This document shows, one piece after another, positions 6,377 to 46,600 of a DNA stretch of 49,034 nucleotides. The stretch is from positions 1-49,034 of IMG/VR virus record IMGVR_UViG_3300028587_000009; one strand, written 5' to 3'. Below the pieces are notes generated by a model. The model saw nothing but the letters and a program-made list of their open reading frames with translations, searched no databases and was not told where the DNA came from. Origin of the DNA: a virus. Its lineage: Duplodnaviria > Caudoviricetes. The position numbers and the translations under genes were made by a program. How positions within the stretch are numbered: the first letter of the stretch is position 1; each line of letters opens with the position of its first letter.

Positions 6377-6404
6377 TACTCTCCTCCAGAGAAAGTGGTG
6401 AGTC

Positions 6405-7268
6405 ATGGCCGAGAGATACTTGCTCAGCGCAGACGACCTGGACATACTGCGTCGCATCATCAACTCTGTTGACAAGACTCCTAAGAACAAGGTAGGGCAC
6501 AAGTACCACAACCTGGACGACCCACCTTCCCCTGACGTGTACATAGCCTACACCCCTGGCGGAATACAGGGTAGATCCGGTATCAACGCTGGTTACGGAG
6601 ACTGTGACATCTACCGTATATCCTGGCAGGACAACATCCCTGTGCTGGTACAGGCTACTACTCTTCAGAGAGTGGTTAACGTAGGTACAGACGGTATTAA
6701 CGCAGACTCATTCTTCTCGGTCAAGAGGGATAAGTACGGAACCTGGCTGGCCGACGCCTTCTCTTCTGATAGTGACGTTGGTACTGGTACGGGAACGGCT
6801 GTAGATCCTGGAGCTAGTGCTGCGTTCTCCGGGGCAAAGGTTAGCTGCCAGTCTGGGCAATCCATACCAAACGGTGGGTTCGGTTCGGAGACTGCCATAG
6901 TCTTTGACTTTGAGGCGTATGATCAAGGTGGTTACTGGAGCGCTGGTAACCCTACGAGATTCACAATACCAGAGTCTGGCTATTATCACGTAGGGGGTAG
7001 TGCTCTGTTTGACCCGAGCCAAACGTACACGTTGCAACTACTTACCATATACAGGAACGGTATATTGGCTCATGACAACGAGTGGCAGAACCACCCCCAT
7101 GCCACCGGTCAGGATGCTAATCGTAGCTCCATGTGGCTGGCCATAGACTTCTTCTTCACAGCCGGTCAGTATATAGAGTTACGGGTTGGTCAGACCAATT
7201 CTGGCAGTGCCAACAGGTTAGTCAGTGGTGGTGATGCACAGTTCTGGATTCACAAACTAGGTTCGTAG
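6405..7268 (+). CDS. Tail fibre/receptor-binding protein with C-terminal C1q/TNF-like domain
   Basis: FSGAKV...IVFDFEAYDQGGYW...TRFTIPESGYYHV...AGQYIELRV follows a C1q-like pattern. Confidence 0.65.
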   Translation: MAERYLLSADDLDILRRIINSVDKTPKNKVGHKYHNLDDPPSPDVYIAYTPGGIQGRSGINAGYGDCDIYRISWQDNIPVLVQATTLQRVVNVGTDGINADSFFSVKRDKYGTWLADAFSSDSDVGTGTGTAVDPGASAAFSGAKVSCQSGQSIPNGGFGSETAIVFDFEAYDQGGYWSAGNPTRFTIPESGYYHVGGSALFDPSQTYTLQLLTIYRNGILAHDNEWQNHPHATGQDANRSSMWLAIDFFFTAGQYIELRVGQTNSGSANRLVSGGDAQFWIHKLGS

Positions 7269-7272
7269 AGTG

Positions 7273-7301
7273 TTGACCTTTAGCCAGGGTTCGTATATTG
7301 T
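7273..7301 (+). promoter_or_regulatory. Putative sigma70-type promoter
   Basis: TTGACC-N17-TATTGT in an intergenic gap. Confidence 0.4.
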
Positions 7302-7336
7302 ACTACCCTAGTAGTTCCTCAAACATGGAGACAAAC

Positions 7337-7636
7337 ATGAAACACAGGCTCCGAGTCGTCTTCGATGAAGAGACTGGCGACTTGCAGGTGACACATTCCT
7401 GCACGGTTACGATGGGTGACCAGAAGGTTACCAAGTCTGAAGTCATCACCCTTGAGTCTCAGGACTCATTCCTGGATTCCCTGAAGGAGATCCTCAAGGC
7501 CAACCGAAAGACAATGGAAAGGATGACTAAAGAGTCCGCTGTCGAGCACATGGCAGCGGTTCAAGGTGTGATGCGAAGGAATCGTAAACAGCAAGCCATT
7601 ACTGGCAAGATGAGTCCAGTAGGAAAGGAAGAGTGA
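7337..7636 (+). CDS. Hypothetical protein
   Basis: ATG at 7337 with GGAG RBS; fits the operon. Confidence 0.6.
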   Translation: MKHRLRVVFDEETGDLQVTHSCTVTMGDQKVTKSEVITLESQDSFLDSLKEILKANRKTMERMTKESAVEHMAAVQGVMRRNRKQQAITGKMSPVGKEE

Positions 7637-7639
7637 ATC

Positions 7640-8275
7640 GTGCTCGGATTTACAAGCCTTATCGACAGGGTTGTTGTGCGACAAGACAAGCAACCTATCC
7701 GTGAACCTTCTGCCTGGTGGAAGTTCTGCAACACCCTCAAGCTGATCCGGGATGGCTCCCTATTCATACCCTTACTGGCAAGGGTAGCCAGGAGACTTGG
7801 CCTGGCTGTTATATACTCCGAGTTGTACGGTCACGTCAGACACGCTGACGGCACCATCACCAACTACGGACTGCTGGGTAGGAATGTCATCACCGATGCT
7901 GGGGTAGCATTCCTGGCTGACGACTTCGGTGCAGGTGGTAGTGAAATCTCCAATATGAAGTTCCACGGATATGGAACCGGCACTACCAACGAAGCTGCCA
8001 GTCAGACAGCACTGGTAACCGAGTTGACAACTGAGTATGCCAGTAACATCAGACCAACTGGAACTCAGTCGGATTCTACCAATACGTACACCACGGTTGG
8101 TACACTCACCCCTGACTCTGGTGGTACCCTGGCGATAACAGAACATGGTATCTTCAGTGCCAGTTCTGCTGGCACTCTGTGGGATCGAACCAAGTTCACC
8201 GCCATTAACCTGGACTCGACGGCAGGAGATTCGCTGGTAACAACCTACGTCGCTACCTTCCCGAGTGGTGGATAA
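7640..8275 (+). CDS. Putative virion/tail structural protein
   Basis: The NVITDAG...GTGTT...TALVTE...ITEHGIF...LWDRTKF pattern recalls phage tail-fibre/collar N-terminal domains. Confidence 0.6.
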   Translation: MLGFTSLIDRVVVRQDKQPIREPSAWWKFCNTLKLIRDGSLFIPLLARVARRLGLAVIYSELYGHVRHADGTITNYGLLGRNVITDAGVAFLADDFGAGGSEISNMKFHGYGTGTTNEAASQTALVTELTTEYASNIRPTGTQSDSTNTYTTVGTLTPDSGGTLAITEHGIFSASSAGTLWDRTKFTAINLDSTAGDSLVTTYVATFPSGG

Positions 8276-8276
8276 C

Positions 8277-8783
8277 ATGGCCCTCACATCAACTCAACTG
8301 ACTGCTCTGAAGAATGCTATCAACGCCGATGGAACACTGTCGGCGTTGCCTAACAACAGTGACGGCAACTCTAGCATTGCTGCTGCTTTCAATCTTCAAG
8401 CCGTACCAGACTGGACCATCTGGAAAAAACTAGTGCCAGTAGCAGACATTGGTAAGAAGATAAATGGAACTGAGTTGGCTGGGCTGACCTCGCTCAACCA
8501 CACCCGACTCCAAACCATCATCACCCTTACCACTGCTTCTGGTGGGCTGGATGCTAGCTTGGCAGATCAGAGACAGTTCTTCGACGACATCTTCAGTGGT
8601 GCCGGAGGAACCAATACCAGAGCAGCACTCCTTATCCTGTGGAAGAAACTATCTAGCCGTGCAGAGAAGCTGTTCAGTACTGGTACTGGCAGCAACGCTT
8701 CCCCGGCTACGACGGATAGTAACATTGGTATGAACTTCACTCTAACCGTGGCAGACGTAGAACAGGCCCGTAACCTGCCGTGA
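8277..8783 (+). CDS. Putative virion protein
   Basis: ATG immediately after the previous stop; Ala/Thr-rich. Confidence 0.6.
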   Translation: MALTSTQLTALKNAINADGTLSALPNNSDGNSSIAAAFNLQAVPDWTIWKKLVPVADIGKKINGTELAGLTSLNHTRLQTIITLTTASGGLDASLADQRQFFDDIFSGAGGTNTRAALLILWKKLSSRAEKLFSTGTGSNASPATTDSNIGMNFTLTVADVEQARNLP

Positions 8784-9326: not shown

Positions 9327-11426
9327 GTGCTGGGCCGCTACATTGATTTGGGAAACCCCGTTGCGAACCATCCTCTCAATTTGGGACTGGTCGCGTGGTA
9401 TCTGCCCTTGCCCAACAACGCGGGGGGCGGCACCCTATTTGACCTCAAGGGTCGCAGCCACGGGACGCTCGTGAACGGCCCGACCTGGAGCGCGGGGGGC
9501 AGGCCGGGGGCACTGAGGCCATGTCTGTCCTTCGACGGCTCCGACGACTACGTTGGCATTACTCCTGCCACGTCCGCAGGCTGGCCCGACATCGGCGGGG
9601 CGAAGACGATCAGCATGTGGACGCAGTTCGATTCGACCCTTGCGAACAGTCGCATCCTGTTCTCACTCGTCCTGGACGACTCGGGTGGGGCGGGCAATTC
9701 GCTCGACCTTTACTTCTCCAACAGCTTCAGCGTCCGGGATATAAACTGTCGCCAGTGGGGCGGGCAACTCCGACTGACCGCCTACCCGGCCGACTACGGC
9801 GTCTCGGCGGAGTCATGGTTCCACCTGACCTACACGAGCGGCTCAGGCTGGACGCCGCAGAAGTTCTACTTCAACGGTATCCCGGCCGCGTCCTTCTCCG
9901 AGGCAACCAGCACGCAAACGGGTGCGCCTGGGGTGTGCCGAATCGCGAGCTTCAATGCCGCCTTCCCGGACCCCTACCACAACCGCCCGGTCGACGACGT
10001 GCGGGTTTACAACCGGGCGCTGTCTGCCGCCGACGCCTACGCCCTCTACTGGCAGTCCTTGCGGGGGCACCCCGACACGATGAGGAAATGGTCCCATAGA
10101 GTATGGACGTTCGGCCAAAGAGGTGGTGGTGGAGGTACAACTACTCCACAAAGTAACAGCGGATCAACCACACCGTCTGGTACGTTACAGAAGACAGTCA
10201 ACCGTTCTCTGGCGGGTAGTGTAACTTCTAGTGGTACCAAGACGAACTCAGCCAGGAAACCATTAGCTGCCAGTCTAACTGCTACGGGAACCAAGGCTAA
10301 CTCTGCCAGTAAGACTATCTCCGGTAGCTCGACTAGTAGTGCCGCCCTGACCAGATCGTTCGCCAGACCGGTTAGCGGTAGCCTCACAGCAACAGGAACC
10401 GAGACTCGCTCTACTTCTAAGTCACTGGCTGGTAGTTCTACAGTAACAGGATCAACTAGCAACATCCGTGCTGCACTACAGACTCTTACTGGTAGCCTTA
10501 CTGCTACTGGAGCAACTACTAGATCAACAGCAAAACCACTTAGTGGTATTCTGACTCCCACCGGTACATCAGCCAAGAGTTCTTCCAAGTCTATGTCTGG
10601 TAGCTGCACGCCCACTGGTACTACCAGTAGTATCCGTGCCGCGTTACAGACCCTAACTAGTAACCTAACTGCCACCGGGTCAGCCATAAGATCAGCTGCC
10701 AAAACACTGACTTCCAGTCTTACAACTACGGGTATTGCTAGTAAGACAACGTCAAGATCATTAGCAGGCAGTACGACACCAACAGGTTCTCTTTCAATCA
10801 ACAGAGCCCTGTTCCAAACACTAATTTCTACCCTGGCGGCTATCGGAACGTCTGCACGCTCGGTATCCAAGACCCTGACTTGCTCTTCATCTATCTCCAG
10901 TGCAGTATCCAAGCTGATCAGTAAGCTGTTCAGCGGAGGCTCAGCCCCTAGTGGTAGCGCTAGTAGTACTATACCCTCTCCTCCAGAAGAGGCTTCTGAT
11001 AGATACTTGACATCTTATGCGAGAGACGACAACTACCTAACCTCATACGTACAGGATGACAACTACGTAACGGGTATTATAGGGGACGGGTCAATGAGCT
11101 ACAAGAAGAACTTTGAGTGCAACGTCGGTGAGAAGGTGACTATGGACTTCTTCGACACCGACAGCGAGAACCGCAGCGGTCAAACTCTGGTGTACCGACT
11201 ACGATCTGTTGACTACGACGGTACTATCCTGACTACCAAGACCGTGGGAGATGGTATTACCTTCCCATCCGCTACCCCTGCTGGTTCAACCGTCAGGGTA
11301 CTTTTAGATAGTGAGGATACAGAACTACCCAAGGGTAAGTACTACTACACACTGTCTAGACAGGATGACGAAGTTGTCCTCGCACATGGTGTGTTAACCG
11401 TGGGAAGACCAAGGGTGTTTGCATGA
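9327..11426 (+). CDS. Fibre/adhesin: LamG (concanavalin A-like) domain + Ser/Thr repeat shaft + C-terminal BppU-like domain
   Basis: GLVAWY...HGTLVNGPTW...LSFDGSDDYV...WFHLTYT...DDVRVYNRALS is a LamG signature. It is followed by 18/20-aa repeats and a C-terminal DTELPKGKYYYTL...GVLTV motif. Confidence 0.8.
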   Translation: MLGRYIDLGNPVANHPLNLGLVAWYLPLPNNAGGGTLFDLKGRSHGTLVNGPTWSAGGRPGALRPCLSFDGSDDYVGITPATSAGWPDIGGAKTISMWTQFDSTLANSRILFSLVLDDSGGAGNSLDLYFSNSFSVRDINCRQWGGQLRLTAYPADYGVSAESWFHLTYTSGSGWTPQKFYFNGIPAASFSEATSTQTGAPGVCRIASFNAAFPDPYHNRPVDDVRVYNRALSAADAYALYWQSLRGHPDTMRKWSHRVWTFGQRGGGGGTTTPQSNSGSTTPSGTLQKTVNRSLAGSVTSSGTKTNSARKPLAASLTATGTKANSASKTISGSSTSSAALTRSFARPVSGSLTATGTETRSTSKSLAGSSTVTGSTSNIRAALQTLTGSLTATGATTRSTAKPLSGILTPTGTSAKSSSKSMSGSCTPTGTTSSIRAALQTLTSNLTATGSAIRSAAKTLTSSLTTTGIASKTTSRSLAGSTTPTGSLSINRALFQTLISTLAAIGTSARSVSKTLTCSSSISSAVSKLISKLFSGGSAPSGSASSTIPSPPEEASDRYLTSYARDDNYLTSYVQDDNYVTGIIGDGSMSYKKNFECNVGEKVTMDFFDTDSENRSGQTLVYRLRSVDYDGTILTTKTVGDGITFPSATPAGSTVRVLLDSEDTELPKGKYYYTLSRQDDEVVLAHGVLTVGRPRVFA
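10160..10960 (+). repeat. About 14 degenerate 18/20-aa Ser/Thr-rich coding repeats
   Basis: Units such as LAASLTATGTKANSASKT, VSGSLTATGTETRSTSKS and LTGSLTATGATTRSTAKP. IRAALQT-like 20-aa units recur every 56 aa. Confidence 0.85.
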
Positions 11427-11695
11427 TGGAACACAAGTGTTCCCACCTGGGTAAGTTCTCTGGAGAGTATGTAGACTGTACCACATGCAGGAGAGGGGTT
11501 AAATTAAAACTATATGACTGTGAGGTTTATGGCCAGTGTACGCTTACCAAAGGGGTTGACGGGTTCCCCTGTTGTGAGGGTAAGCTAACTATAAATGGGC
11601 ACGCCGCATGCCCCAAGAGGGACACCAATGGGCAAGATAAAGTGGGCTTACGGGTTGACAACGGTGCCGAGGCGGAGGAACACCCTGCTCCCTAA
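11423..11695 (+). CDS. Small Cys-rich protein
   Basis: 8 Cys in 90 aa; start overlaps the previous stop (ATGA). Confidence 0.65.
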   Translation: MMEHKCSHLGKFSGEYVDCTTCRRGVKLKLYDCEVYGQCTLTKGVDGFPCCEGKLTINGHAACPKRDTNGQDKVGLRVDNGAEAEEHPAP

Positions 11696-12338: not shown

Positions 12339-13391
12339 ATGAGGAGTATATCTCAAGTTCTTGTCAACCTGGATAGTCCTAGCCTTAGTCCACTACCGAC
12401 ACCATCCTGCTCCCCCTTACCTTACTCTAACCCTACCTGTGCCGCCCTGGCAGTGGAGAGCATGAGTAGCCACATGACGGATGAGGGTTGGCAGATCATG
12501 GTTGGTCTGGAACACCACGGCTTCAAGCTGTGCGGCTACAACCTGACTGTTGGCTTCACAGACGTAGATCAGATACTAGCCACTCTTTCTCCAGATGTCG
12601 TACTGGTGCAAGACAAGCGTGAGTGGGACTTGGCTGCCAAGGACTTCAGGGAACCTAGAGCCAGGTTCACCAACGTAGAATCTCTGAAGGACAGGCACGA
12701 TATCTTCAAGCTGACCATACTAAAGGATGCACACCAGCGACCCGAGTATCACATGCAATCTGCTGAAGAGATGGGTGTGCACGCCTGGGTCACCTACTAT
12801 CATTCAGACATTGTACACCACCTGGCCCCGTACACTCGCAAGGAGCACCTGATACGCACGTACCACTCCGTTAATGCTGACCGTGTACCACCCTACTCTC
12901 CAGAAGGTAGGTCGGGAACGTTGCTGTCCGGTGCAGTTAGCTCTGTGTACCCCATGCGACAGAACATGATCAGAGAGATACACAGACTACCGGCCACCAT
13001 CGTGCTTAGGCATCCTGGTTATCACAGGAAAGGGTGCATGACCTATGAATTCTTGCATGCTCTCAGTAAGTTCAAGGTCGCTATCTGTACATCTAGCATG
13101 TACGGCTACGCCCTACGTAAGATTATCGAGGCTACGGCGTGCGGCTGCATAGTGGTAACCGACTTGCCTACCGACGAGGTGTTACCCGAGATAGATGATA
13201 ACCTTATACGAGTGGCACCAACTATCTCTGGAAGAGATATGGGCAAGCTACTGTCTCGCCTCTACGAGACTTACGACGCCGACAGGCAGTACTACTTTGC
13301 CCAGCAGTGTAAGTCTTTCTACGACTACCGGAACACCTGCCGTATCCTTAAAGACCAGATACTTAACCTACGGAGAAACTACCCATGCTGA
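12339..13391 (+). CDS. Glycosyltransferase (GT-B, CgeB/Glyco_trans_1_2-like)
   Basis: C-terminal LSKFKVAIC...RKIIEATACGCIVVTD motif. Confidence 0.7.
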   Translation: MRSISQVLVNLDSPSLSPLPTPSCSPLPYSNPTCAALAVESMSSHMTDEGWQIMVGLEHHGFKLCGYNLTVGFTDVDQILATLSPDVVLVQDKREWDLAAKDFREPRARFTNVESLKDRHDIFKLTILKDAHQRPEYHMQSAEEMGVHAWVTYYHSDIVHHLAPYTRKEHLIRTYHSVNADRVPPYSPEGRSGTLLSGAVSSVYPMRQNMIREIHRLPATIVLRHPGYHRKGCMTYEFLHALSKFKVAICTSSMYGYALRKIIEATACGCIVVTDLPTDEVLPEIDDNLIRVAPTISGRDMGKLLSRLYETYDADRQYYFAQQCKSFYDYRNTCRILKDQILNLRRNYPC

Positions 13392-13984
13392 GGAAGTCCA
13401 ACCTTACCACCAGGAATCAACTCCCACTATTGCTCAACGAGAAGGGTCTGCTAGGCACGGCAGTAGAGGTAGGCACCCACCAGGGGGATTACGCTTCCAT
13501 CTTCCTGGAACGATGGGAGGGTAACATGCTAGTATGCGTTGACCCCTGGCACATACCACCGGGCTACGAGCACCAGATGAAGTTCCTGTGGGGTGACAAG
13601 AACAGAGATAATGACTTCCAGACTTGCATGGACAGATTGTCTAGGTACGAGGGCCGGTACTGCATGATGCGTATGATATCTGTCAAAGCATCCGAGCACT
13701 TTGAGGACCACTCACTAGACTTCGTTTATCTGGATGGTGACCACCGATACAAGGAAGTACTCAAAGACCTGCGTGCGTGGTGGCCAAAGTTGAAAATGGG
13801 TGGTATACTTGCAGGCCATGACGTGATAATGCCTAACCAGAGTGCTGAGGATGACTGGCCAACAGGAGTACAAGGTGCTCTGGACGCATTCTTCGGGCTG
13901 ACCACCCATCACTACGACATCAACCTGATAGTAGAGGAAGATGGTCTGCCCTGGTCCTTCTACCTGGAGAAGACTCATGAATGA
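13385..13984 (+). CDS. Class I SAM-dependent methyltransferase (Methyltransf_24-like)
   Basis: VEVGTHQG, VDPW, LDFVYLDGDHRY, GGILAGHD. Confidence 0.88.
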   Translation: MLRKSNLTTRNQLPLLLNEKGLLGTAVEVGTHQGDYASIFLERWEGNMLVCVDPWHIPPGYEHQMKFLWGDKNRDNDFQTCMDRLSRYEGRYCMMRMISVKASEHFEDHSLDFVYLDGDHRYKEVLKDLRAWWPKLKMGGILAGHDVIMPNQSAEDDWPTGVQGALDAFFGLTTHHYDINLIVEEDGLPWSFYLEKTHE

Positions 13985-14978: not shown

Positions 14979-15695
14979 ATGGATGATTCGTTCCCTAGTG
15001 GTATGGTGGACTGCATAAGGGAGTTCTTCAAGAAGGACCATAAACGCCCGGCAGGTCTAGACATCTACCATGACGTGTTCGACGCCCCCCTGTTCTTCCC
15101 GTTGCAAAGGAAGGCAGAGTTGATCAAGATGATCCAAGTTGCCCGCTCGATAAAGCCGAAAGTCATCTACGACATCGGCAGCGACAAGGGGGGTGGTCTG
15201 TACCACTGGTGCAAGTGTCTACCCAGCATAACCAGAGTTATCTCATGTGAGGTTAGAGGCACCCCTTATGCTGAGGAGTTTGAGAAGAACTTCCCCTTCA
15301 TCAACTTCAACTGGCTGCCAATGTCTAGTCTTGATGACACTGCTTTGAGTGTGGTCTTCCAGGTTACCAAGCAGCAGAAGATAGACATATGTTTCATCGA
15401 CGGGGACAAGACTGCATTCACGGAAGACTTCTATAATATACTTCCGTACATGAGTAGCAAAGGCATTATCTTCATGCACGATATAACAGACAACCCGATG
15501 CCAGGCGACTCATTCCAGGAGATACGTAGGCATGGTTACGTAACATCGGAGATAATAGACAGGTCAGACAGTCTGCTGGCTATCAATAGGGAAAAGGAAG
15601 GTATCCCTAGCAGTGGACCATACGAGAGTTGGTTGCGTCATTGGAAGGGTAAGAGTTGTGGGGTTGGGGTCATATACCTTTCTGGAGGAAACTAA
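14979..15695 (+). CDS. Class I SAM-dependent methyltransferase
   Basis: DIGSDKGG, IDICFIDGD, GIIFMHD. Confidence 0.8.
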   Translation: MDDSFPSGMVDCIREFFKKDHKRPAGLDIYHDVFDAPLFFPLQRKAELIKMIQVARSIKPKVIYDIGSDKGGGLYHWCKCLPSITRVISCEVRGTPYAEEFEKNFPFINFNWLPMSSLDDTALSVVFQVTKQQKIDICFIDGDKTAFTEDFYNILPYMSSKGIIFMHDITDNPMPGDSFQEIRRHGYVTSEIIDRSDSLLAINREKEGIPSSGPYESWLRHWKGKSCGVGVIYLSGGN

Positions 15696-15697
15696 TC

Positions 15698-16456
15698 ATG
15701 AGAGCCATACTGGTAAGCGTGGACTATACCGATCTGTTGTCATTGACCCTGCCGTACAATCGACACCACTTCGAGGAGGTATTGGTTGTAACCTCTATCA
15801 TGGATAGGCGTAACGTCAGGCCAGTAGCTGATCAGAACAAGGCCGACATATACGTTACTGACTCCTTCTACCACGGCGGGGCCAGGTTCAATAAGTGGAA
15901 GGCACTGGAGGAAGGGTTGGATTACTTCGGCAGGCAGGGTTTACTGTGCATCATGGATGCGGACGTACTCTGGCCCAAGACCATACCAGTAGACGACTCG
16001 TACTTCCTGAAGGGTAAGCTGTATTCCCCGCTAAGACGCATGGCCCCCATGCCATCAGCTAGCGTCCCGGAGTCTACCCCCTTTCCTCCAGAGAGTGACT
16101 GGTGGATATATCCGATCCATCGTAACACCAGCGAGTGGGCTGGGTACTCTCAGATTTTCCACGCAGATGATCCGGTACTCGGCAAGACACCCTGGCATGA
16201 GATTAACTGGACCCATGCGGGTGGTGCCGACTCCTTCTTCCAGCAGAAGTGGAAGTTGATAAACCGTATCAGACCACCGTTCGAGATATTGCACCTTGGT
16301 GACGCGGGTGCTAACTGGTTTGGTAGAGCTACAAGGTACATCGACGGTACGCAACCTGAGAACGCTGAACTTAGGAGAAAGGAGATGAAGGAGTCTATCA
16401 GACGCAGGGGTCAATCCAACCCCGACCATAGGTATGATCACGAGAAGTTAGGGTAG
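15698..16456 (+). CDS. Glycosyltransferase (GT-A fold)
   Basis: FNKWKALEEG, DxD motif MDADV, GYSQIF, GGADSFF, HLG. Confidence 0.75.
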   Translation: MRAILVSVDYTDLLSLTLPYNRHHFEEVLVVTSIMDRRNVRPVADQNKADIYVTDSFYHGGARFNKWKALEEGLDYFGRQGLLCIMDADVLWPKTIPVDDSYFLKGKLYSPLRRMAPMPSASVPESTPFPPESDWWIYPIHRNTSEWAGYSQIFHADDPVLGKTPWHEINWTHAGGADSFFQQKWKLINRIRPPFEILHLGDAGANWFGRATRYIDGTQPENAELRRKEMKESIRRRGQSNPDHRYDHEKLG

Positions 16457-23399: not shown

Positions 23400-23581
23400 G
23401 TGTTACTCCTTCTTGTAATATCGTTGTACCGTGGATTCCCATTCAAGTAGAACCTCCGTATCACACCGTAAACTCTAGATATAGAGATGTTGAACCTCTT
23501 CGCCAGGGCCGCATAAGACTCGCCTGCCAACCAATACCGGATCAACTCACGGTTGCGTCTGGTCTTCTCTGGTAGAGGCAT
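23396..23581 (-). CDS. Small HTH (Mor-like) DNA-binding protein
   Basis: RNRELI...GESYAALAKRFNISISRVYGVI. Confidence 0.7.
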   Translation of the reverse strand: MPLPEKTRRNRELIRYWLAGESYAALAKRFNISISRVYGVIRRFYLNGNPRYNDITRRSNT

Positions 23582-24791: not shown

Positions 24792-24828
24792 GGTATCCTC
24801 CTGTCTTAGTCGGGCGACTATCTTCCTA

Positions 24829-24857
24829 ATGTTAACAGAACTAAACCTCAAAATCAA
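24829..24857 (-). promoter_or_regulatory. sigma70-type promoter for the dUMP hydroxymethylase operon
   Basis: TTGATT-N17-TAACAT with an extended -10 TG. Confidence 0.55.
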
Positions 24858-24973: not shown

Positions 24974-25366
24974 ATGTCGGAAGTCAAGAAGCCAGTCGCC
25001 TCCACCGCAACCGCAACCAAACCGGCTGGCAAGAAACCGGCGGCTCAGAAGCCAGCCACTCCAAAGCCACCGGCTCAGAAGCTGACCAAGCTGACACCGG
25101 AAGAGGAGCGTGAGAACGCTACGTCCGTTGGACTGGGTTTGGTACAGTACCGTATCCTGCGTGCGATGTCCGACGGTACGGAGCACAGCTATCGAGACAT
25201 CGAGGCGAAGACCGGCTACTACAAGAACCTCACCCCGGTCATGCGTCAAGCCTACGATGGTAGCCTTTCTGCAAAAGGTCTGATCAAAGAGGTTGTCAAG
25301 AACGTTGATGGCAAAGAGAAAATCACCTTCGTCATCACCGCCAACGGCAAGAAGCTCGTCAAGTGA
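24974..25366 (+). CDS. Winged-helix protein with histone H1-like K/P/A-rich N-terminal tail
   Basis: RBS AAGGAG and its own promoter. KPAGKKPAAQKPATPKPP tail; RILRAM...SYRDIE...KGLI...FVITANGK wHTH pattern. Confidence 0.75.
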   Translation: MSEVKKPVASTATATKPAGKKPAAQKPATPKPPAQKLTKLTPEEERENATSVGLGLVQYRILRAMSDGTEHSYRDIEAKTGYYKNLTPVMRQAYDGSLSAKGLIKEVVKNVDGKEKITFVITANGKKLVK

Positions 25367-31251: not shown

Positions 31252-31372
31252 GTTCACTCTCCCATCCACTAAGTAGTTGCTGGGCTTCTTCTACTGTGAT
31301 ATTCACGAACGCTAACAGTATAGTGTTGACAGGCGACGAGTCGCCACCTCCCTCACTATGTTCAGGTTCCAT
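31238..31372 (-). CDS. 44-aa hypothetical protein
   Basis: ATG with GGAGG RBS; overlaps the polA start. Confidence 0.35.
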   Translation of the reverse strand: MEPEHSEGGGDSSPVNTILLAFVNITVEEAQQLLSGWESEHVSN

Positions 31373-31433
31373 TCTCTTTCCTCCAGAGAACCAGACCGAC
31401 CGGTGTTACCCGATCGGTCCAGTGGTGTTGGTA

Positions 31434-32481: not shown

Positions 32482-32483
32482 AT

Positions 32484-34925: not shown

Positions 34926-35774
34926 TTACCCGTTGATCAACGCCATGATCTTCTCATAGCTGGGGTCAACAATTTCTGGAGGAAGTTCTTTGAACCTCGG
35001 TGCTCTGAACTTTGTAATATACACCTCTGGGCACTGAATCCGCAAGCAGTGTTCCTTTTTTCCTGTGCGAATTCTGCTTTTACCAGCCGGTCCCTTGCTC
35101 GGGCGCTCAACCACTTCCTCTCTGACGAACATCTCGCAGATGTAATCTGCTGCCTGGTTCAGCCATCCCGCAACCGACGGAGTGAGTGCTGGTCCAATAT
35201 ATGGCACGCCAACCGGGGTGTCATCTTCTTTGAAACTACGCTCCTGTGCAACAACAACCACGTTACAGGTGTGGTCGAACAGTGGCCGCATCAGCTCTTT
35301 GCACTTTACACCTAGTTGACCGTACTGTTCTCGTGTCATCAAGCCCCAACTCTTCTGAACCGGCACCCGATCCAACCCCAGTATCTCCTTGATCAGCAGG
35401 TCTTGTAAGCCCGTTGCGTGGTCGACCACGACAGTCCTGTAGTTATGAATACCCTCCAGAAGCATTGGTATCTGGGCACTGTCAACTATAACCTTCGGTT
35501 CGATCACCTCCCTCAACTCCGGTGTGTCGATGCTCCTCAACTCGCCCGGTCTGGCACCACCGGAGATAACCAGTGCCAGTATGGGCTTCTCGAATGTCGC
35601 CCAGAGGGTAGTTTTGCCACTCCCTGGAGAGCCGTACAGCACCATCTTGACGCCCTCATCCTCTGACGGCCAACCGGACAAAGCCTCCTGCACTACCCTC
35701 GGTGGCTGGGCCACCCTACCAGTACCCGTCCTGGCTACTGGCCTTGGTGTCTGCTTGGATATGCTAGGTGGCAT
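34926..35774 (-). CDS. AAA_24 / Sak4-like P-loop ATPase
   Basis: LYGSPGSGKTT, TVVVD, NVVVVAQE, IGPALT, ITKFR. Confidence 0.8.
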   Translation of the reverse strand: MPPSISKQTPRPVARTGTGRVAQPPRVVQEALSGWPSEDEGVKMVLYGSPGSGKTTLWATFEKPILALVISGGARPGELRSIDTPELREVIEPKVIVDSAQIPMLLEGIHNYRTVVVDHATGLQDLLIKEILGLDRVPVQKSWGLMTREQYGQLGVKCKELMRPLFDHTCNVVVVAQERSFKEDDTPVGVPYIGPALTPSVAGWLNQAADYICEMFVREEVVERPSKGPAGKSRIRTGKKEHCLRIQCPEVYITKFRAPRFKELPPEIVDPSYEKIMALING

Positions 35775-35788: not shown

Positions 35789-37015
35789 TTAGGTACTAAG
35801 TTCCGGGAACAGATTGTCGGTTCGCTCCAGCCCAGCCTCACTGCCGCTGTGCAGGTACTCATCCAACTCGGAAGAGCCACCCTCATCCAGTACGTTGTAC
35901 ACTCCGAACGGGTGCCGCCAGTGGGCACCCCTACCACCGGCATTCATCCAGCAGTCCTCGGTTTCCTGGAGCCACCCCCACCAGTCGCACAGGCTCTCCA
36001 GTATGGGGTCTAGGCACTCCTTGGTGAACCGTCTTACATCGGCAGGGCTAATCTCAACCCGCCACCGCATGAAGAAGTTGTCCGGCTCTTCCATTATAAC
36101 AGAGGCGAGTCGAGAGTAAAACTCGTCCTGAGTTTCTGGCGGCTTCCCGCCGATCCGCCCATCCCCACCACACTTTACGCACCTGGCACCGCTGGGCATC
36201 TTACCTTCACCCTTGCACTTCCCGCACTTAGCCCCGGCAGTACCCTTGCCCCTGACTATACTACCTTTCCCTCCAGAGAGTGGCCTCCGGACCACGTTGT
36301 AACGTACACCACCGATTAGATACTCTCTACCGTCGGCGTGTCTGTAGTGACCCAGTCGTGCCAGGTCAGGACTCGGATTGTTGTATAGGGCGGTCATGTA
36401 CATCATGGTCTGCAAGTCGAAGTGCAGTTGCTTCTTAAGTGCCTCCGGTTGCACGTCACCCTTCGTCTTGTTCTCCTGGATGTACACGGCTGCGTTCCTG
36501 CCCTTACCAATCAGGTCAACGCTGTCCCACTTACCCCGGAGAGTAACGATCTTACCTGATGGCAACTGGTATGGAACCCCGAAGGACTCTTCCTGGAGGA
36601 GAGGGGTACGCTGTAGTACATCTGGGTGTTCTGACCAGTAGTACAGATATAGTGGGAACTGTGTAGAACACACGTTCATCCAGTGTTCAATGTTATCCTG
36701 GTCGGTGGGGTACTTCCTCATCAACTGGCCACAGTAGTCTGCTAGATAGCCCTGCCACTCATAGCCCTGTGCCCACATCTCCTCACATATGTGCCACATC
36801 TGACCATACTCGATACGATGGTTGAACCCTGACGCTGGCTTCAGACCCTCTACAACCAGTAACCTGAACCTCTCACGACACACGATGAATCTGCTGAGCA
36901 GGGAGAAGGTGATGCCGTCAACCTCCGGTCCCTTCCACACCGGGCCTGACCGAGCCTTTGGCCTGACCCTGTCAGCAGAGCCTATGCTACTCTTCAGCTT
37001 CTTAACAAAGTCCAT
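35789..37015 (-). CDS. PD-(D/E)XK (Cas4/RecB-like) exonuclease with inserted DnaJ-like Zn finger
   Basis: TFSLLSRFIVC, G..WH, LRGKWD, ENKT, Q..MY; insert CGKCKGEG...CVKCGGDG. Confidence 0.8.
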   Translation of the reverse strand: MDFVKKLKSSIGSADRVRPKARSGPVWKGPEVDGITFSLLSRFIVCRERFRLLVVEGLKPASGFNHRIEYGQMWHICEEMWAQGYEWQGYLADYCGQLMRKYPTDQDNIEHWMNVCSTQFPLYLYYWSEHPDVLQRTPLLQEESFGVPYQLPSGKIVTLRGKWDSVDLIGKGRNAAVYIQENKTKGDVQPEALKKQLHFDLQTMMYMTALYNNPSPDLARLGHYRHADGREYLIGGVRYNVVRRPLSGGKGSIVRGKGTAGAKCGKCKGEGKMPSGARCVKCGGDGRIGGKPPETQDEFYSRLASVIMEEPDNFFMRWRVEISPADVRRFTKECLDPILESLCDWWGWLQETEDCWMNAGGRGAHWRHPFGVYNVLDEGGSSELDEYLHSGSEAGLERTDNLFPELST

Positions 37016-38464: not shown

Positions 38465-38770
38465 CTATCGCTTCCTTTTCCCTAGTACGGTTACGGTTAC
38501 CGACTCGTCCTCGTTGACGACCACTCTAACCTCCATGGCGTACCTTCTTGCAGAGGCGTTGTTACGTATCTGCTGTGCCATCGTATAGCCACGACCGTTG
38601 AAGTCGCGACCTGGATAGATGGTGAAGGGTTCTGTGGTTGCAAACCATTCCTTCCAGGGATACCTCCTGGTATGAAGGTTGTTCTTCTTCGGCCTGCCAC
38701 TGTGCACGGCCACGTCAACCTCCTTTCTATCACAACAACAAGCCCCACCCGCCGTGTCCTTGTTGAGCAC
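38465..38770 (-). CDS. Hypothetical protein (start uncertain)
   Basis: RYPWKEWF motif; basic. Confidence 0.55.
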   Translation of the reverse strand: MLNKDTAGGACCCDRKEVDVAVHSGRPKKNNLHTRRYPWKEWFATTEPFTIYPGRDFNGRGYTMAQQIRNNASARRYAMEVRVVVNEDESVTVTVLGKRKR

Positions 38771-40738: not shown

Positions 40739-41026
40739 TCAACTTTGGTTTTCAGACGGTAGTAATACCGTTTCAATTCTCAGGTTCACTATACGCTCGC
40801 TAGGGTGGCAGCCATACCCCATTATGAAACTCTCTGGAGAGGTAGTGTAGTACAGGCTAATGAACTCCTCTGCTTGGTATCGGCTATCGAATACGTGGCT
40901 TGGCCGAGGATACAGCCAATGGAACGTAAACCTCCACCATGATTCCCTTTCTCTCCAGAAGAACACCTCATACAGTATGCGGTTTGGGTCTCTCATGTCT
41001 ATAAGGTCAGCCACTACCAGGAACAT
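40739..41026 (-). CDS. Hypothetical protein
   Basis: RBS GGAGG. Confidence 0.55.
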   Translation of the reverse strand: MFLVVADLIDMRDPNRILYEVFFWRERESWWRFTFHWLYPRPSHVFDSRYQAEEFISLYYTTSPESFIMGYGCHPSERIVNLRIETVLLPSENQS

Positions 41027-41035: not shown

Positions 41036-41332
41036 CTAGTAACCAGGGAACACCAGTACCGACACGAACTGTGGTATCTCTTCTGGAGGGAAGGTGTGGA
41101 TGCTATACTCCATGATCTGCCCGTTGCGTACTATGTATTGCGGTATCTCAACCCAGGGGCCACGCCCCCTTCTTATCTCACTGGCTTGCTCGTCGTACTT
41201 CGCCTTGTCGAAGAACTCCAGCATGTGTTCTTCTAGTGGGCATATGTCTGAACACTGTAGGAATACGCAGCCGATGATCGTTCCCTTCGGCAGCTTCTGC
41301 AGATACACAATCAAGTCTTCTGCTGTCATCAT
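41036..41332 (-). CDS. Hypothetical protein, paralog of 44458..44742
   Basis: Shared LI..LQK.P..T.IG and Y..RNG.IMEY...PQF...L.FPG. Confidence 0.7.
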   Translation of the reverse strand: MMTAEDLIVYLQKLPKGTIIGCVFLQCSDICPLEEHMLEFFDKAKYDEQASEIRRGRGPWVEIPQYIVRNGQIMEYSIHTFPPEEIPQFVSVLVFPGY

Positions 41333-41334: not shown

Positions 41335-43599
41335 TTAGCTCACATAGGTTAGTTCATGGATTGCCCTGGTGACGCCAACATAGAGGAGGTTATACTCCTG
41401 TTCCAACTGCCATGCCATCTTGGCCGAGGGGTGTGGGCAGGGTGACTCCTCTGGTTGTAGGAAGTACACCCGTTCAGACTCAAGACCCTTGGCCTTGTGA
41501 ATACTACTGAACTTGACGCCAGGACTGACGGTGTCGTCTGTGAACAAGGACTTGATCTTGTGGATCACCCCCTCCACCGTTAACTGACCATCGGTGAAGC
41601 ACATCACACAGTCAGCCCTGTCATTGATGCCCATGATACGGGTCTCTGAAGGCATCTTCTTCGCTTGCTCCTTGGTTATCTCACCGAACCTCCACTCGTC
41701 CAGCTTACCAATCAAATCAGGCACACTCTCAGCACCCATCCTGTTGACGAGATTGACAAGGTCATCACCGATCCTCCTCCCTTGTATCATGGCTCGCCTA
41801 CCCTTCTTGAGAAGGCGGAAGCACTGGTTAACCAGTGGTGCGTTGGTTCTGCACAACACCATGTCACCGTCCTTGGTTGTTGGTAAGTAAGTATCCTCGT
41901 ATGGAATCTCTCGCACACCCTGATCCCAGTAGTTACTCGACCGCTGAGTGGTGTACTTACCGTGACTGATCTTCCCTTCGTGCGTGTCGGGGAAGTAGGA
42001 GAAGTCTGGTACGATACGCCTAGCCTCCTCTACGATGGCCTTGCCACACCGTCTGGTAACGGTGAGGGGTAACTCCACACAACCGGCAGGGGTGTCATCC
42101 AACTCCTTCAGCATGCGAGCCATGCTCTGAGTATCGGCTCCAGTGAAACCATATATAGCCTGCCTGTCGTCACCGCACATGACCAACCGCTTACCCATCT
42201 TCCTAGCAAGGGCGTGTTGGCACCTGCCCAAGTCCTGGAACTCGTCGATCAGGAGCAGGTCGTATCGGAACACTGGTAGGTCCAGGATGACAGGCAACCA
42301 GACCATGTCAGAGTAGTCGATCATACCCCTACTCTTCGGATCCTTGCACTTCTTGAGTATGTCAGGCACCAACTCCAGCAGGTTGTCACGATGAGTACCA
42401 ACCTCCACGTCGTACCTGTCGATCAGGTAGTCCAGATTATCCTCAGTTGGGTCACTGAGTGTGACCTTACAGAGCCGTACCAACTCTGCCGCAGCCGATG
42501 GTAGGATTGGGTCTTTCTCCCTGAGTACCCTAATGTCCAGACCAGTTAGTTCCTCCATGATCAGGTATGTTACTAGTCTGTCATCGTCGGGCACCTCCAG
42601 TTTACCCATCGACTTGAGTACCGACCGGTAACCCAGACCGTGCATAGTCTTGGCCTCTACTCCTTGAGGCACCCTGTCTTTCAACACCCTTGCGATAGAC
42701 GTATTGTATGCACACATGCAGATGAACCTGGCACCCTTACTCTCCTCCAGAGAATCCCATACCAGAGCCTGTTGCTCTGATGGTGTGATCTTGGGGATGC
42801 CGCCAGTCACCATGTCCAAGCCACCGATCAGAGTTGTAGTCTTACCAGTACCAGCCCTCGCCTTCACCATCAGGTGTGGTGGTAGTCCACTACGACGATG
42901 TTCTCTGGAGGAAAGGGGATCATGTTCATGGGCTACCACTGTAGGCTCAGTCCCACTATTCGGTATAACTCGGAGGGGCTTTTTGATCTTGCTTCTGAGC
43001 ATTGCGGATAGTCCAGACTTGCCACCACCGGTTGATCTCGTACTCCCTGGTTCGGCAGAGTTCTCGCTGGTGTCGTTCGTACCAGTTGACGGTGAACTCT
43101 GAGAACTCGCCTGCGATCTCACCACAGGGGTTGAGGATGGCTGGTACTGTGAGGGTTGGGTAGGGTCCGGGCTATGCTCACCCTCAGATTCATCGGTGAT
43201 ATCGACATCCGTATCTTCTACAGACTGCACACCACCTTCGGAGGGGGTTGTAGATGTTTCGGTAGGGTTTGCTTCCTCGCTGATCTTCCCATCGAGAGTA
43301 GCCTCGCTCGCCTCCGCGAACGGGTCATCCACCACGGTGATAAGGTCTGGAGCTTCAACCTTCTTCACCTCTACTCCAACCCTACCAGTGTTGTTACTCC
43401 CGCCGTAGGGCTGTACCTCTACACGGAACTTCTGTGCCGAGCGGAACACAACCTGTCTCTTGGTGGTAAGGTTGGTACAGTAGTAACGCCAACCCCTACC
43501 ACGGAACCCTTGCTCAATACGGTCCACTCTTACCGTGGTGAGTTTATCACTCACCTTGGCCCTGTAGGTCTTGCCAATCTGAATCTCGTCGTGTCGCAT
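41335..43599 (-). CDS. UvrD/Rep-like SF1 helicase with extra N-terminal domain and disordered linker
   Basis: ARAGTGKTT, IDEFQD, GDDRQAIYGF, VLCRTNA, SIHKAKGLE, LLYVGVTRA. Confidence 0.9.
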   Translation of the reverse strand: MRHDEIQIGKTYRAKVSDKLTTVRVDRIEQGFRGRGWRYYCTNLTTKRQVVFRSAQKFRVEVQPYGGSNNTGRVGVEVKKVEAPDLITVVDDPFAEASEATLDGKISEEANPTETSTTPSEGGVQSVEDTDVDITDESEGEHSPDPTQPSQYQPSSTPVVRSQASSQSSPSTGTNDTSENSAEPGSTRSTGGGKSGLSAMLRSKIKKPLRVIPNSGTEPTVVAHEHDPLSSREHRRSGLPPHLMVKARAGTGKTTTLIGGLDMVTGGIPKITPSEQQALVWDSLEESKGARFICMCAYNTSIARVLKDRVPQGVEAKTMHGLGYRSVLKSMGKLEVPDDDRLVTYLIMEELTGLDIRVLREKDPILPSAAAELVRLCKVTLSDPTEDNLDYLIDRYDVEVGTHRDNLLELVPDILKKCKDPKSRGMIDYSDMVWLPVILDLPVFRYDLLLIDEFQDLGRCQHALARKMGKRLVMCGDDRQAIYGFTGADTQSMARMLKELDDTPAGCVELPLTVTRRCGKAIVEEARRIVPDFSYFPDTHEGKISHGKYTTQRSSNYWDQGVREIPYEDTYLPTTKDGDMVLCRTNAPLVNQCFRLLKKGRRAMIQGRRIGDDLVNLVNRMGAESVPDLIGKLDEWRFGEITKEQAKKMPSETRIMGINDRADCVMCFTDGQLTVEGVIHKIKSLFTDDTVSPGVKFSSIHKAKGLESERVYFLQPEESPCPHPSAKMAWQLEQEYNLLYVGVTRAIHELTYVS

Positions 43600-43932: not shown

Positions 43933-44352
43933 TTAGGTTCTCCTATACTTGCGTCTAGTTGGGTTGTACTTCTTACGCTTGTGCTTCGGTTTGTACATGG
44001 GACTCTTTGGGTCGGTGTACATCTTGATGCGTAGCATACTGGTAAGCCTTCCCTGTGCTGCCCAGAAGCTACGCTTTCTATCTCTACTGTCAAACTCAAC
44101 CTTGTAGTGACAGCTTTTACACAGAGGTATCAGTGGCTCCAGGTCCATGCCGACCAACACTTCTCTGGAGTAAGAGGTATGGTGTATCTCACTGGCCCTG
44201 TTAAGACAGCACCTACACTCTGTACCCTTCAATACTAGTACCCTGGTTCTGATGGTTGACCACAAGTCACTCATCAGGTAGGACCAGTATGATGGGAAGC
44301 CTAGTCTCTTGAGTACAACATCTCTCTTCTGATACTCTGTTAGCTCTTTCAT
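43933..44352 (-). CDS. HNH endonuclease-like protein
   Basis: CRCC...HHTSY...LIPLCKSCH. Confidence 0.7.
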   Translation of the reverse strand: MKELTEYQKRDVVLKRLGFPSYWSYLMSDLWSTIRTRVLVLKGTECRCCLNRASEIHHTSYSREVLVGMDLEPLIPLCKSCHYKVEFDSRDRKRSFWAAQGRLTSMLRIKMYTDPKSPMYKPKHKRKKYNPTRRKYRRT

Positions 44353-44440: not shown

Positions 44441-44457
44441 GATTCCGGTAGTCAAAA

Positions 44458-45008: not shown

Positions 45009-45017
45009 TGAACTCTC

Positions 45018-45437
45018 CTAGAAGTCGATGTCGGGTGGTGTGATAACGTCTTCGTCTTCGTTTGGGCCTTGCTCCTCACTATCATGAGAGCTGTGCTCAT
45101 CAACAACGCCGTTGGTTCCCGGATGTTTCCAGGGTGAGGCAGTCTGCTGACTATTCTTGCGTGGTGGCCTGGCGTTTTCCCTAGATTGGTTCTCCTTGGC
45201 CTGTGCCTCACGCTCTTTAGTAAGGCAAGGGTTGGACCAGCTGATCCTGGCACTGTCGTAGTACATGCAGATCCACAGCCCACCCCTACCCTTCTCCAGT
45301 GCTGAGTAGACCAGGGTGCCGTTGTCGAAGCACCGGACCGTACCCGCCTCCTGATCATGGTTGGCCTTGCACCCCACGTTCTTCAACCGGGTGATCATCT
45401 CCTTCACCTCGGCCTTTGTCATCACTGATACTGGCAT
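45018..45437 (-). CDS. Hypothetical protein
   Basis: RBS GGGAG; tight packing. Confidence 0.6.
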   Translation of the reverse strand: MPVSVMTKAEVKEMITRLKNVGCKANHDQEAGTVRCFDNGTLVYSALEKGRGGLWICMYYDSARISWSNPCLTKEREAQAKENQSRENARPPRKNSQQTASPWKHPGTNGVVDEHSSHDSEEQGPNEDEDVITPPDIDF

Positions 45438-45449
45438 GTCATATCTCCC

Positions 45450-45815
45450 TTAGTACTCATCCAGGTCGAACTCGTAATCACCGTCCACGAAGGAGTCGGT
45501 GCCGTCGTGGTCATACTCCTCTTCAAGGAACTCTTCTTGTTCCTCCCAGCATCTCAGGTCATCGTCGTACTCGGCTCTCGTCTCGTAGATGGTAGCGAAG
45601 GTGCTACCCGTATAGCCTACGCAGTGGTCGTTACCGAACGTACCCCAGTAGATAGTCAATGATTCCTCATCACCGACGAACCACTCTCCACTAAGGGAAC
45701 CGTACTCGTACTGTTGGTTACGGAACTCAAAGTCATCTGCTAGTTCACAGATGCTCTTCAGACCGGCATTGTTCCAGTCTTCAACGTGGTATGCTCTGAT
45801 CGTAGTCGTGCCCAT
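45450..45815 (-). CDS. Highly acidic hypothetical protein
   Basis: RBS AAGGAG; D/E-rich throughout. Confidence 0.65.
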   Translation of the reverse strand: MGTTTIRAYHVEDWNNAGLKSICELADDFEFRNQQYEYGSLSGEWFVGDEESLTIYWGTFGNDHCVGYTGSTFATIYETRAEYDDDLRCWEEQEEFLEEEYDHDGTDSFVDGDYEFDLDEY

Positions 45816-45829
45816 TCTCTGTTGCTCCT

Positions 45830-46021
45830 TTACTGTAGGTTCTTGTTGAAGTCTTGAGGGTGCGGATACATGAACATACCCGACTCTATTGCCTCGTCCT
45901 GGTTATCGAAGGGACCGATGAGCATACGCCCATCGTCCACGTACCACTGATTGTCAGACTCACTCATGACCACCGTCCATATCTGGAACATGATTGCACT
46001 CCTGTTTACTCTCCTAATCAA
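45830..46021 (-). CDS. Hypothetical protein (start probably ATG near 45991)
   Basis: CAGGAG precedes an internal ATG. Confidence 0.5.
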   Translation of the reverse strand: MIRRVNRSAIMFQIWTVVMSESDNQWYVDDGRMLIGPFDNQDEAIESGMFMYPHPQDFNKNLQ

Positions 46022-46252
46022 TCAACTCACCTTCTCTACTCTACGGTCACACACGTCACAGCCACTTAAGTACCCTATCCAGTGTGTGTATTCTAGTGCC
46101 AGCTCTGCCTCACGTATGGTACGGAACCTTGCCAAGCGTTCGTTGTTACTGTAGACACTCCACCAATAGTGTCCTGCCCTGCACAGGTATAGCCTCTCGG
46201 CCTTGCGATTGGGTTCCCTATTTCGGGTCAACCATCCTGTTATGATGTGCAC
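46022..46252 (-). CDS. Hypothetical protein
   Basis: GGAGG RBS before GTG. Confidence 0.5.
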   Translation of the reverse strand: MHIITGWLTRNREPNRKAERLYLCRAGHYWWSVYSNNERLARFRTIREAELALEYTHWIGYLSGCDVCDRRVEKVS

Positions 46253-46384
46253 TACTAATCGCCTCCATCGTTGTCACACATGGTACTATCCTCCAGAGAA
46301 CCGGGGTGGGCGATACCCCGGAGTTAGGTTACTTACTGATCTACTCTACGTAGCAGTCCTTGCCCATCTCTAGTCTCCTCGGGT

Positions 46385-46600
46385 TCAACTGTCGTCCACG
46401 TTCTCATCTAACACGTCTTCAATAGCAAGCACCTCGTCGTTGTGTGGACAAGCGTGCCGCTCCGCTAGTTCTCTGGAGGAAAATACCCTAACACAGTCCA
46501 TGAACATGGTGTAGGCTCCCTCCTCTACAGTCTCATACTCACTGAGGCAGCGGTAACGCTTGCTTAACCTGTGTTGTATTAGGAACATTGCTACCTCCAT
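46385..46600 (-). CDS. Hypothetical protein
   Basis: GGAGG before an internal ATG. Confidence 0.55.
   Translation of the reverse strand: MEVAMFLIQHRLSKRYRCLSEYETVEEGAYTMFMDCVRVFSSRELAERHACPHNDEVLAIEDVLDENVDDS

Follow-up and report, generated by a model that had tools for sequence, protein, structure and literature searches.

Which factor could read a non-palindromic 12-nucleotide word that recurs throughout the genome of a tailed phage? This question is raised by a virus of the Caudoviricetes, IMG/VR record IMGVR_UViG_3300028587_000009, of which positions 1 to 49,034 (hereafter the window, 49,034 nucleotides) were analysed. The window represents most of the phage, with the tape measure and tail genes on the plus strand and the replication genes on the minus strand, and a near-identical record adds 19.4 kb with terminase-, portal- and capsid-like genes (labels read from their translations). 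Since this phage is also represented by a contig of 68,868 bp (L517), the analysed 68,449 bases cover almost the whole genome. Selection maintains the word as a directional DNA site on both strands, and, judging from the sequence, it is probably an extended recognition site where the primase-helicase of the phage would start RNA primers.

An earlier note on this DNA had listed nine exact copies of TCCTCCAGAGAA, and all of them were recovered with their positions and strands (Table 1), together with the copies carrying one or two mismatches (16084, 44161, 48929, 36269 and 11456) and the AGAAGA variants (1535, 10979 and 26610). With at most one mismatch, the 12-mer has 12 matches, against a mean of 0.27 and a maximum of 2 in 100 dinucleotide shuffles. 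The excess of exact copies survives Markov null models of orders 0-6, which expect 0.006-0.47 copies (P≤2e-9), and also a codon-aware null, as the six exact copies within open reading frames (ORFs) compare with a mean of 0.06 and a maximum of 2 in 1000 synonymous-codon shuffles. These six lie in four strand/frame combinations, and the remaining three are intergenic. A coding or codon artefact was rejected on the codon-preserving nulls. A Shine-Dalgarno or CsrA RNA site was rejected as well, because roughly one site in two has its GGAGG strand in the mRNA and the occurrence of CsrA does not follow that of the motif. A CsrA homolog is encoded by the phage (37015-37284) and is found in 29 of 47 records.

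The dispersed word is confirmed and is bigger than first reported. In this phage, the motif reads T-N-Y-C-C-T-C-C-A-G-A-R-R (about 13-14 bp, about 19 bits), and the 12-mer is the core of a broader motif, T-N-Y5-CAG-R-R, which occurs 42-49 times in the 68-kb phage, with copies on either strand and in several of the reading frames. A stricter matrix detected 42 sites in the window and its 19.4-kb extension and none in the reversed sequence; 19 are on the plus and 23 on the minus strand, and 22 are co-oriented with transcription and 20 opposed to it. A looser matrix detected 49 sites, of which 39 fall within the window; chance alone would give about 7 in ORFs. Codons at the sites are rarer than average (-0.14±0.016 log units). 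The sites are not clustered, their overall spacing in this genome is indistinguishable from random, and no rise in density was observed near the terminase region (P 0.35). The inverted pairs described earlier (158 bp and 180 bp) exist, but their excess was not borne out, with 4 pairs within 220 bp vs 2.1 expected (P=0.15), and close inverted pairs were discarded as a special unit in this genome. An exact 15-mer scan of viral contigs returned 118 stretches, in which the multi-site loci were the phage's own records and two with three matrix matches; contigs of the same phage are near-identical, and few variants fall near sites. No longer repeat family or mobile element was found around the word, apart from a two-copy site-plus-hairpin: the motif is immediately followed by a GC hairpin (GGCGAT loop) at 46279-46328 and 47875-47924, as well as at position 8347 of record G029, and nowhere else in 91 records. 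This motif-plus-hairpin could be an origin-like or a transcript-leader element.

Polymerase and primase searches retrieved 90 other records, whole or as 11-22 kb loci, most of them 35-60% identical in polymerase/primase proteins, and six further motif-poor records were covered via 12-22 kb primase loci and whole-record pattern counts. The word is kept in at least ten of these distant relatives: judged by a null that preserves codons, 11 of the 91 records, this phage among them, are enriched for TNYYYYCCAGR at log10 P≤-3.2, and four of the 11 (G457, G467, G484 and G485) came to light after the pattern was fixed. Each enriched record has its own variant, such as TCCCCCCCAGAGAA, TNYYCTCCAGGA or TTTYYTCCAGAGAA, and YTCAG forms occur in G475, G477, G484 and G486. 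The pooled logo is T-y-Y5-C-A-G-R-R, with nothing beyond these positions. Among the 64 central triplets possible in the Y5-NNN-RR frame, CAG is the most enriched (1104 vs 816 in 44 records), but the ratio for CTG is only 1.08, which means that the word has a direction. Motif carriers are scattered over a quick polymerase tree (7 changes for 8 records, with 349 of 500 shuffles as low), and no gene confined to motif-rich relatives was found. The whole family A DNA polymerase correlates with the motif in a Mantel test (P=0.011), as one of 16 families tested.

The spacing of the sites was analysed in 16 CCAG-motif genomes with 380 sites, after removing overlapping matrix matches and dropping G043 (2 sites). 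When these genomes were pooled, same-strand pairs within 1 kb numbered 58, against 84 by label permutation or 89 by uniform placement (P<0.001), opposite-strand pairs were in mild excess (101 vs 76 expected, P 0.003), and the coefficient of variation (CV) of per-strand gaps was 0.66 vs 0.88 expected. Control 7-mers (60 rounds) showed no deficit, with a same-strand ratio of 1.11±0.11 and a minimum of 0.92. The same-strand deficit persists without this genome (45 vs 67) and after adding the four YTCAG records (101 vs 128), and the minus strand of G477 alone, with 43 sites, has a gap CV of 0.64 (P=0.0014). The median same-strand gap is 2.8 kb in 20 genomes, and on either template strand the pooled sites recur at the scale of Okazaki fragments. 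A priming site would be expected to recur every few kb per strand; in phage T7, Okazaki fragments are given as about 1-6 kb, with a mean of about 3 kb (PMC12839067). In addition, the C-rich strand is the coding strand at 233 vs 127 sites (14 genomes pooled), and for the in-ORF sites of 21 records at 261 vs 163, with a codon null of 43 vs 47. This bias corresponds to the lagging template for forks running with transcription; transcription and fork direction are inseparable here, because most relatives carry nearly all genes on one strand.

Based on sequence comparison, the gene that appears to track the motif best is one that the earlier note had not named, the primase-helicase gene. Its zinc domain matches 1d0q (E 1.4e-4), its TOPRIM acidic motifs are conserved, and the genome encodes a zinc-domain and TOPRIM primase with these motifs intact. 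The structural model of the protein (pLDDT 85) resembles Twinkle, Aquifex primase, T7 gp4 and MCM helicases, and a C-terminal winged helix is predicted. Zinc-domain distance tracks motif distance (rho 0.32, P 0.0025; rho 0.28, P 0.005 in all 20 genomes); the distances of the whole primase-helicase (P 0.29) and of the TOPRIM domain do not. Within the zinc domain, the column of F73 is aromatic in 7 of 7 CAG-A records and in 0 of 10 CAG-G records (P 5e-5; 0 of 300 permutations as extreme), and the H80 column shows the mirror split; these 17 records were taken at log10 P≤-2.7, and 8 of them are outside the set where the rule was noticed. The comparison of held-out records, 27 vs 41, gave P=0.005 (Mann-Whitney), with n slightly inflated by near-duplicate records such as G465 and G017. 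The A/G label is not clustered by polymerase (P 0.47) or by the rest of the primase (P 0.35), two distant new loci (L698 and L700) also fit the rule, and 8 of 11 advance predictions held. At the matching position, Geobacillus DnaG has Phe and Aquifex DnaG has Ile, two points that serve as a lead only. The statistical link between zinc domain and motif is real, but it does not amount to a clean code.

A mechanism can be proposed on this basis. If a primase required about 13 specific bases (16-19 bits), chance would supply too few sites, so the genome would have to maintain one every few kb per lagging-template strand. A nearby second copy on the same strand would add little and decay, while an opposite-strand copy would still be useful. 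In the favoured geometry, the C-rich strand would be the template, with the triplet 5'-(C/T)CA-3' and the start opposite the invariant C; the primer would be a purine run such as pppGGAGGAAA (candidates are GGAGGAAA, at 11 of 49 sites, and GGAGGAGA, at 8 of 49), and the zinc domain would read the uncopied 3' flank A-G-(A/G). In the alternative geometry, the G-rich strand would be the template, with the triplet 5'-CTG-3' and a primer starting pppAG. The C-rich template is favoured because the zinc domain co-varies with the purine side, and we consider it the more probable of the two. An invariant Y-Y-R triplet is present in any case (CCA on one strand, CTG on the other), which is a weak test, as such triplets are common. 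The invariant core fits the pyrimidine-pyrimidine-purine rule of DnaG templates, which leads to purine-started primers, with zinc-domain residues setting the uncopied third base (PMC2978363). Zinc-domain swaps shift specificity in plant Twinkle (PMC10557236), an enzyme that uses two uncopied bases (PMC5737085), and in T7 the primase recognises a core together with a 10-nt 3' flank that its zinc domain probably reads (PMC12839067). A more complete reading is offered tentatively: an MCM-fused DnaG-type primase might read a 13-base site so long that phages have to place lagging-strand starts within essential genes, regularly spaced along either strand, and the site might be predictable from the protein by way of a small residue code in the zinc domain.

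Several results weigh against priming sites. Most relatives with an intact primase show no motif enrichment, and none of the columns in 16 core families gives a convincing separation of motif-rich and motif-poor records (lowest family P 0.04, for the terminase; primase 0.095). In this genome alone, per-strand even spacing is a trend only (P 0.07-0.25), and no strand bias is seen in either arm (11:13 and 13:12), the replication arm being inverted. Even spacing is also not unique to the word, as a separate palindrome of G485 has a CV of 0.56. The failed predictions of the F73 rule are G476 and G468, both weakly enriched, and G477, which is the strongest CAG-A record (61 vs 1) yet has Ile at this column; G471 is mixed across its whole record (19:20), and whole-record counts in 20 mostly weak records gave no split (45:44 vs 59:71, P 0.49). 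The zinc domain is not alone in its correlation with the motif, which 5 of 151 other 65-column windows equal (rank 6 of 152), and for the purine tract it is equalled by 9 of 151 (rank 10th). A thymidylate-synthase column also splits the classes (6/6 vs 0/8, family P 0.01), possibly by linkage, since this gene lies just upstream of the primase gene. Lastly, the co-varying residues fall within the helix that follows the zinc ribbon and thus outside the specificity-setting beta-4 strand; in T4, this helix binds the helicase (PMC10359460).

Table 1. Motif sites in the window and the genes discussed with them (window coordinates).
Feature	Position	Strand	Remarks
Exact 12-mer site	6380..6393	+	intergenic
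Exact 12-mer site	20579..20592	+	antisense within primase gene
Exact 12-mer site	25799..25812	-	sense within FkbM gene
Exact 12-mer site	30735..30748	+	antisense within polymerase gene
Exact 12-mer site	31377..31390	+	intergenic
Exact 12-mer site	42741..42754	+	antisense within UvrD gene
Exact 12-mer site	42901..42914	-	sense within UvrD gene
Exact 12-mer site	46287..46300	+	intergenic, then GC hairpin
Exact 12-mer site	46469..46482	-	inside small ORF
AGAAGA variant site	1533..1546	+	looser matrix
AGAAGA variant site	10977..10990	+	looser matrix
AGAAGA variant site	26608..26621	+	looser matrix
1-mismatch site	16082..16095	+	looser matrix
1-mismatch site	48929..48942	-	looser matrix
1-mismatch copy	44161..44172	-	scored by stricter 42-site matrix, not by looser matrix
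Variant site	36267..36280	+	looser matrix
Variant site	15678..15691	-	looser matrix
Variant site (CAGG)	24020..24033	-	looser matrix
Variant site	22896..22909	-	looser matrix
Variant site	34972..34985	-	looser matrix
Variant site (CAGG)	36589..36602	-	looser matrix
Variant site	41079..41092	-	looser matrix
Variant site	5857..5870	-	looser matrix
Variant site	13224..13237	-	looser matrix
Weaker site	4923..4936	+	looser matrix
Weaker site	11456..11469	-	looser matrix
Weaker site	12894..12907	+	looser matrix
Weaker site	21816..21829	-	looser matrix
Weaker site	21910..21923	+	looser matrix
Weaker site	30399..30412	-	looser matrix
Weaker site	30548..30561	-	looser matrix
Weaker site	30950..30963	-	looser matrix
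Weaker site	34580..34593	-	looser matrix
Weaker site	35450..35463	+	looser matrix
Weaker site	38648..38661	+	looser matrix
Weaker site	40949..40962	+	looser matrix
Weaker site	47883..47896	+	then same GC hairpin as at 46287
Marginal matrix match, may be chance	8416..8429	-	
Marginal matrix match, may be chance	12585..12598	+	
Marginal matrix match, may be chance	13960..13973	-	
Primase-helicase, DnaG/gp4-type (zinc-binding + TOPRIM) fused to MCM-like AAA+ helicase	19943..22204	-	753 aa, PHROG primase matches; putative reader
Zinc-binding domain, aa 15-90	21935..22162	-	F73 and H80 columns co-vary with CAG-A vs CAG-G
Family A DNA polymerase	28870..31269	-	Pfam/PHROG; would extend primers
Thymine-hypermodification module: thymidylate-synthase-like	23547..24857		
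Thymine-hypermodification module: FkbM methyltransferase	25359..26075		
Thymine-hypermodification module: HMUDK helical domain	26069..26944		

The earlier note had taken the word for a genome-wide site read by a protein. What stands of this proposal is a selected DNA-level site that is no by-product of coding or Shine-Dalgarno use and is kept in relatives; the readers it named found no support. The primase-helicase itself could use the word in a different way, with its predicted C-terminal winged helix binding the double-stranded site and loading the MCM-like helicase one-way, so that the copies would be dispersed start or restart points, although we judge this improbable. The C-terminus of the protein is the top-ranked 65-column window for correlation with the whole motif (rho 0.33), and the mild pooled excess of opposite-strand pairs would agree with such loading; however, the winged helix-turn-helix (wHTH) segment 665-745 gave a rho of 0.05, the clean residue split belongs to the zinc domain, and close inverted pairs are without clear convergent or divergent preference (51 vs 68 within 600 bp). 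Self-loading MCM-like helicases of SCCmec bind specific iterons, but these cluster at one origin (PMC7581432), unlike the word here.

It also seems unlikely that the word serves a ParB-like protein, the wHTH protein (24974-25366) or the wHTH paralog found in the extension as an operator, stoperator or parS-like site; the first two of these proteins had been put forward as readers in the earlier note. A parS site is palindromic and clustered at one locus; the word is non-palindromic and dispersed, and neither ParB-like protein tracks it. The ParB-like protein at 31434-32285 is found only here and in G029 among 47 records, and that at 38794-40263 occurs in 33 of the 47, motif-rich and motif-poor alike (column test P 0.54), even though its windows rank 2nd and 5th in the 65-column scan. 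The wHTH protein attracted attention because the records with the TGYY-type form (this phage, G485 and G029) rank first to third for YYYCCAGAGA, a match in three records that is not general: the gene is present in motif-rich and motif-poor relatives alike (column P 0.84), near-identical helices occur in motif-rich G031 and motif-poor G459, and the search for a homolog in motif-rich G467 detected none. Some 21-23 bp separate four sites from the late-gene starts that follow them, but the 22:20 orientation to transcription differs from that of stoperators, which are strongly oriented (PMC9283540), and avoidance restricted to copies on the same strand would not be expected of a symmetric binder.

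The wHTH protein is Lys/Ala-tailed, has a fast-changing recognition helix and is usually inverted beside modification genes across the clade; a second copy in this phage ends a 599-aa protein (L016:2884-4683). G485 and G013 both encode a TGY[YW]-type wHTH. G485 (L605-L608) bears a separate palindromic word, TTTGATCAAA, in 78 evenly spaced copies, 47 of them outside called ORFs, and G013 bears a similar word, GAATCCAAA, in 32 copies; this phage is without a word of the TTTGATCAAA type. G477 (L491, L649), with a divergent primase zinc domain, has 61 copies of the near-palindromic CTTTCTC-A-GAGAAAG, of which one strand holds 42, and offers the best test of the residue rule. Other repeated words that are private to a record and for the most part intergenic were observed in G009, G031, G042, G035, G003 and G049 (TCGGTTTCA, TCGGTTACA, ACGGTCTCA, GGACGTKACA, GGAGCAAGCA and AATTAACCTA) and are probably promoter or start-associated signals.

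That the word serves to target or load the thymine-hypermodification module is, in our view, quite improbable. In its favour, the motif classes are split by one synthase column, phage T-dioxygenases are activated by ParB-like proteins (PMC13229309), and in the first set 7 of 7 enriched records of at least 35 kb carry both genes, vs 12 and 11 of 27 others (Fisher P 0.009 and 0.006). This link, strong in the first 34 records, was broken as an obligate one by two complete records, G485, which has 17 YYYCCAGAGA copies and neither gene, and G477, which has 61 copies and no PF18723 match; moreover, many module-bearing records are without the motif. In the module itself (23547-26944), no separate P-loop kinase ORF is adjacent, the gene order is the same in G029, and an undescribed modified base may be made. 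In several relatives, an M6-type set takes its place (kinase, radical SAM, amino acid:DNA transferase and pyridoxal phosphate enzyme).

A site read by the host, such as a Chi-like recombination signal, is very improbable: the G-rich strand, YCTGGRGG, resembles Chi sequences and a shared host group could explain the scatter over the polymerase tree, but Chi and KOPS are defined by polar orientation and enrichment in the host chromosome, whereas the word, which the earlier note had compared to both, lacks polarity here (19+/23-) and concentration near the terminase region, and it is not enriched in 251 genomes of the Planctomycetota (a host that is only inferred), where the highest count of TNYCCYCCAGAG is 35 in 6.8 Mb, vs 219 per Mb in the phage. 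In the genome with this highest count, the 30 examined sites all lie inside ORFs of 39% GC DNA, and an apparent host signature in G168 was rejected as compositional.

The sequencing runs containing the phage are soil metagenomes, and no cultured relatives were found, the best polymerase matches being 20-27% identical over long alignments. Judging from protein style, the host is presumably a member of the Planctomycetota; the host search gave weak matches only (7 of 401 and 6 of 301 genomes), and homolog searches named no Planctomycete source. The phage encodes a tRNA with a CTA (amber) anticodon (32841-32912), yet 14 of 65 listed ORFs, some of them doubtful, end in TAG; two further T-arm-like repeats nearby (32420-32512) were not scored as tRNA genes. 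A low-complexity stretch rich in GTGCTTG/TTGCAAG (L016:5240-6080), which lies between the divergent arms and immediately ahead of a small-terminase-like gene, is a candidate packaging or origin region. A candidate SSB is encoded at 33223. The small N-terminal domain of the UvrD helicase (41335-43599) is a separate 67-aa ORF in G011 and clusters across 23 records, with no Pfam match. In G028, 29 CRISPR-like repeats separated by unique spacers, mostly 34-44 nt in length, form an array immediately ahead of a phage exonuclease gene (L181:100-2240); its spacers had no match in the 91 records beyond a single one of 16 nt.

If the more complete reading offered tentatively above is correct, such a primase would copy only self-marked DNA, and priming would become a self/non-self step that leaves host DNA unprimed. 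How primases settle on a small number of active sites when triplets abound is a standing question (PMC12839067). The natural variants pair a visible, selected site with a specific zinc-domain sequence, which makes a recognition code testable with oligonucleotides and one purified domain. If confirmed, Okazaki start sites would be readable from phage genome sequence alone, replication would impose a cost on coding sequence, and programmable primases of long specificity would be on offer.

Full-text searches, with most subscription journals outside their coverage, found no literature on this motif or phage group. Priming sites are a known kind of element, to which this case adds an enzyme of the DnaG type with an MCM fusion and a link between individual residues and the site. 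The sites of T7 gp4, 5'-(G/T)2GTC-3' with a 10-nt 3' flank, are similar in that a zinc-domain and TOPRIM primase is fused to a helicase, a core triplet has flanks, sites are 1-6 kb apart and the flank is proposed to be read by the zinc domain (PMC12839067). However, the 177 pentamers of T7 arise by composition and the active ones were picked by assay (PMC12839067), whereas the word here has 16-19 bits, is strongly over-represented and lies within genes on both strands, and the helicase is MCM-like rather than DnaB-like. Bacterial DnaG triplets (CTG, CTA and TTA) share the pyrimidine-pyrimidine-purine core and would share the purine-initiated primer and zinc-domain specificity, but they are 3-nt signals with the mapped residues in strand beta-4 (PMC2978363), in contrast with the following helix here. 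The primase-polymerase of NrS-1 is a phage primase that, as proposed here, recognises more than a triplet, although it has an archaeo-eukaryotic primase (AEP) fold with a helix-bundle reader and is not DnaG-type (PMC8718748). Among repeats read by other proteins, the stoperators of cluster A mycobacteriophages are likewise asymmetric 13-mers, in more than 20 copies across the phage genome, but they follow transcription, mainly in promoters and intergenic gaps (PMC9283540); the sites described here are mostly in genes, no repressor tracks them, and their orientation is about 2:1 in relatives. Cluster O mycobacteriophages carry more than 30 dispersed copies of 17-bp repeats, some of them in genes, which are perfect dyads without a strand (PMC4351075), whereas the word of this phage and its relatives is non-palindromic and has strand-specific spacing.

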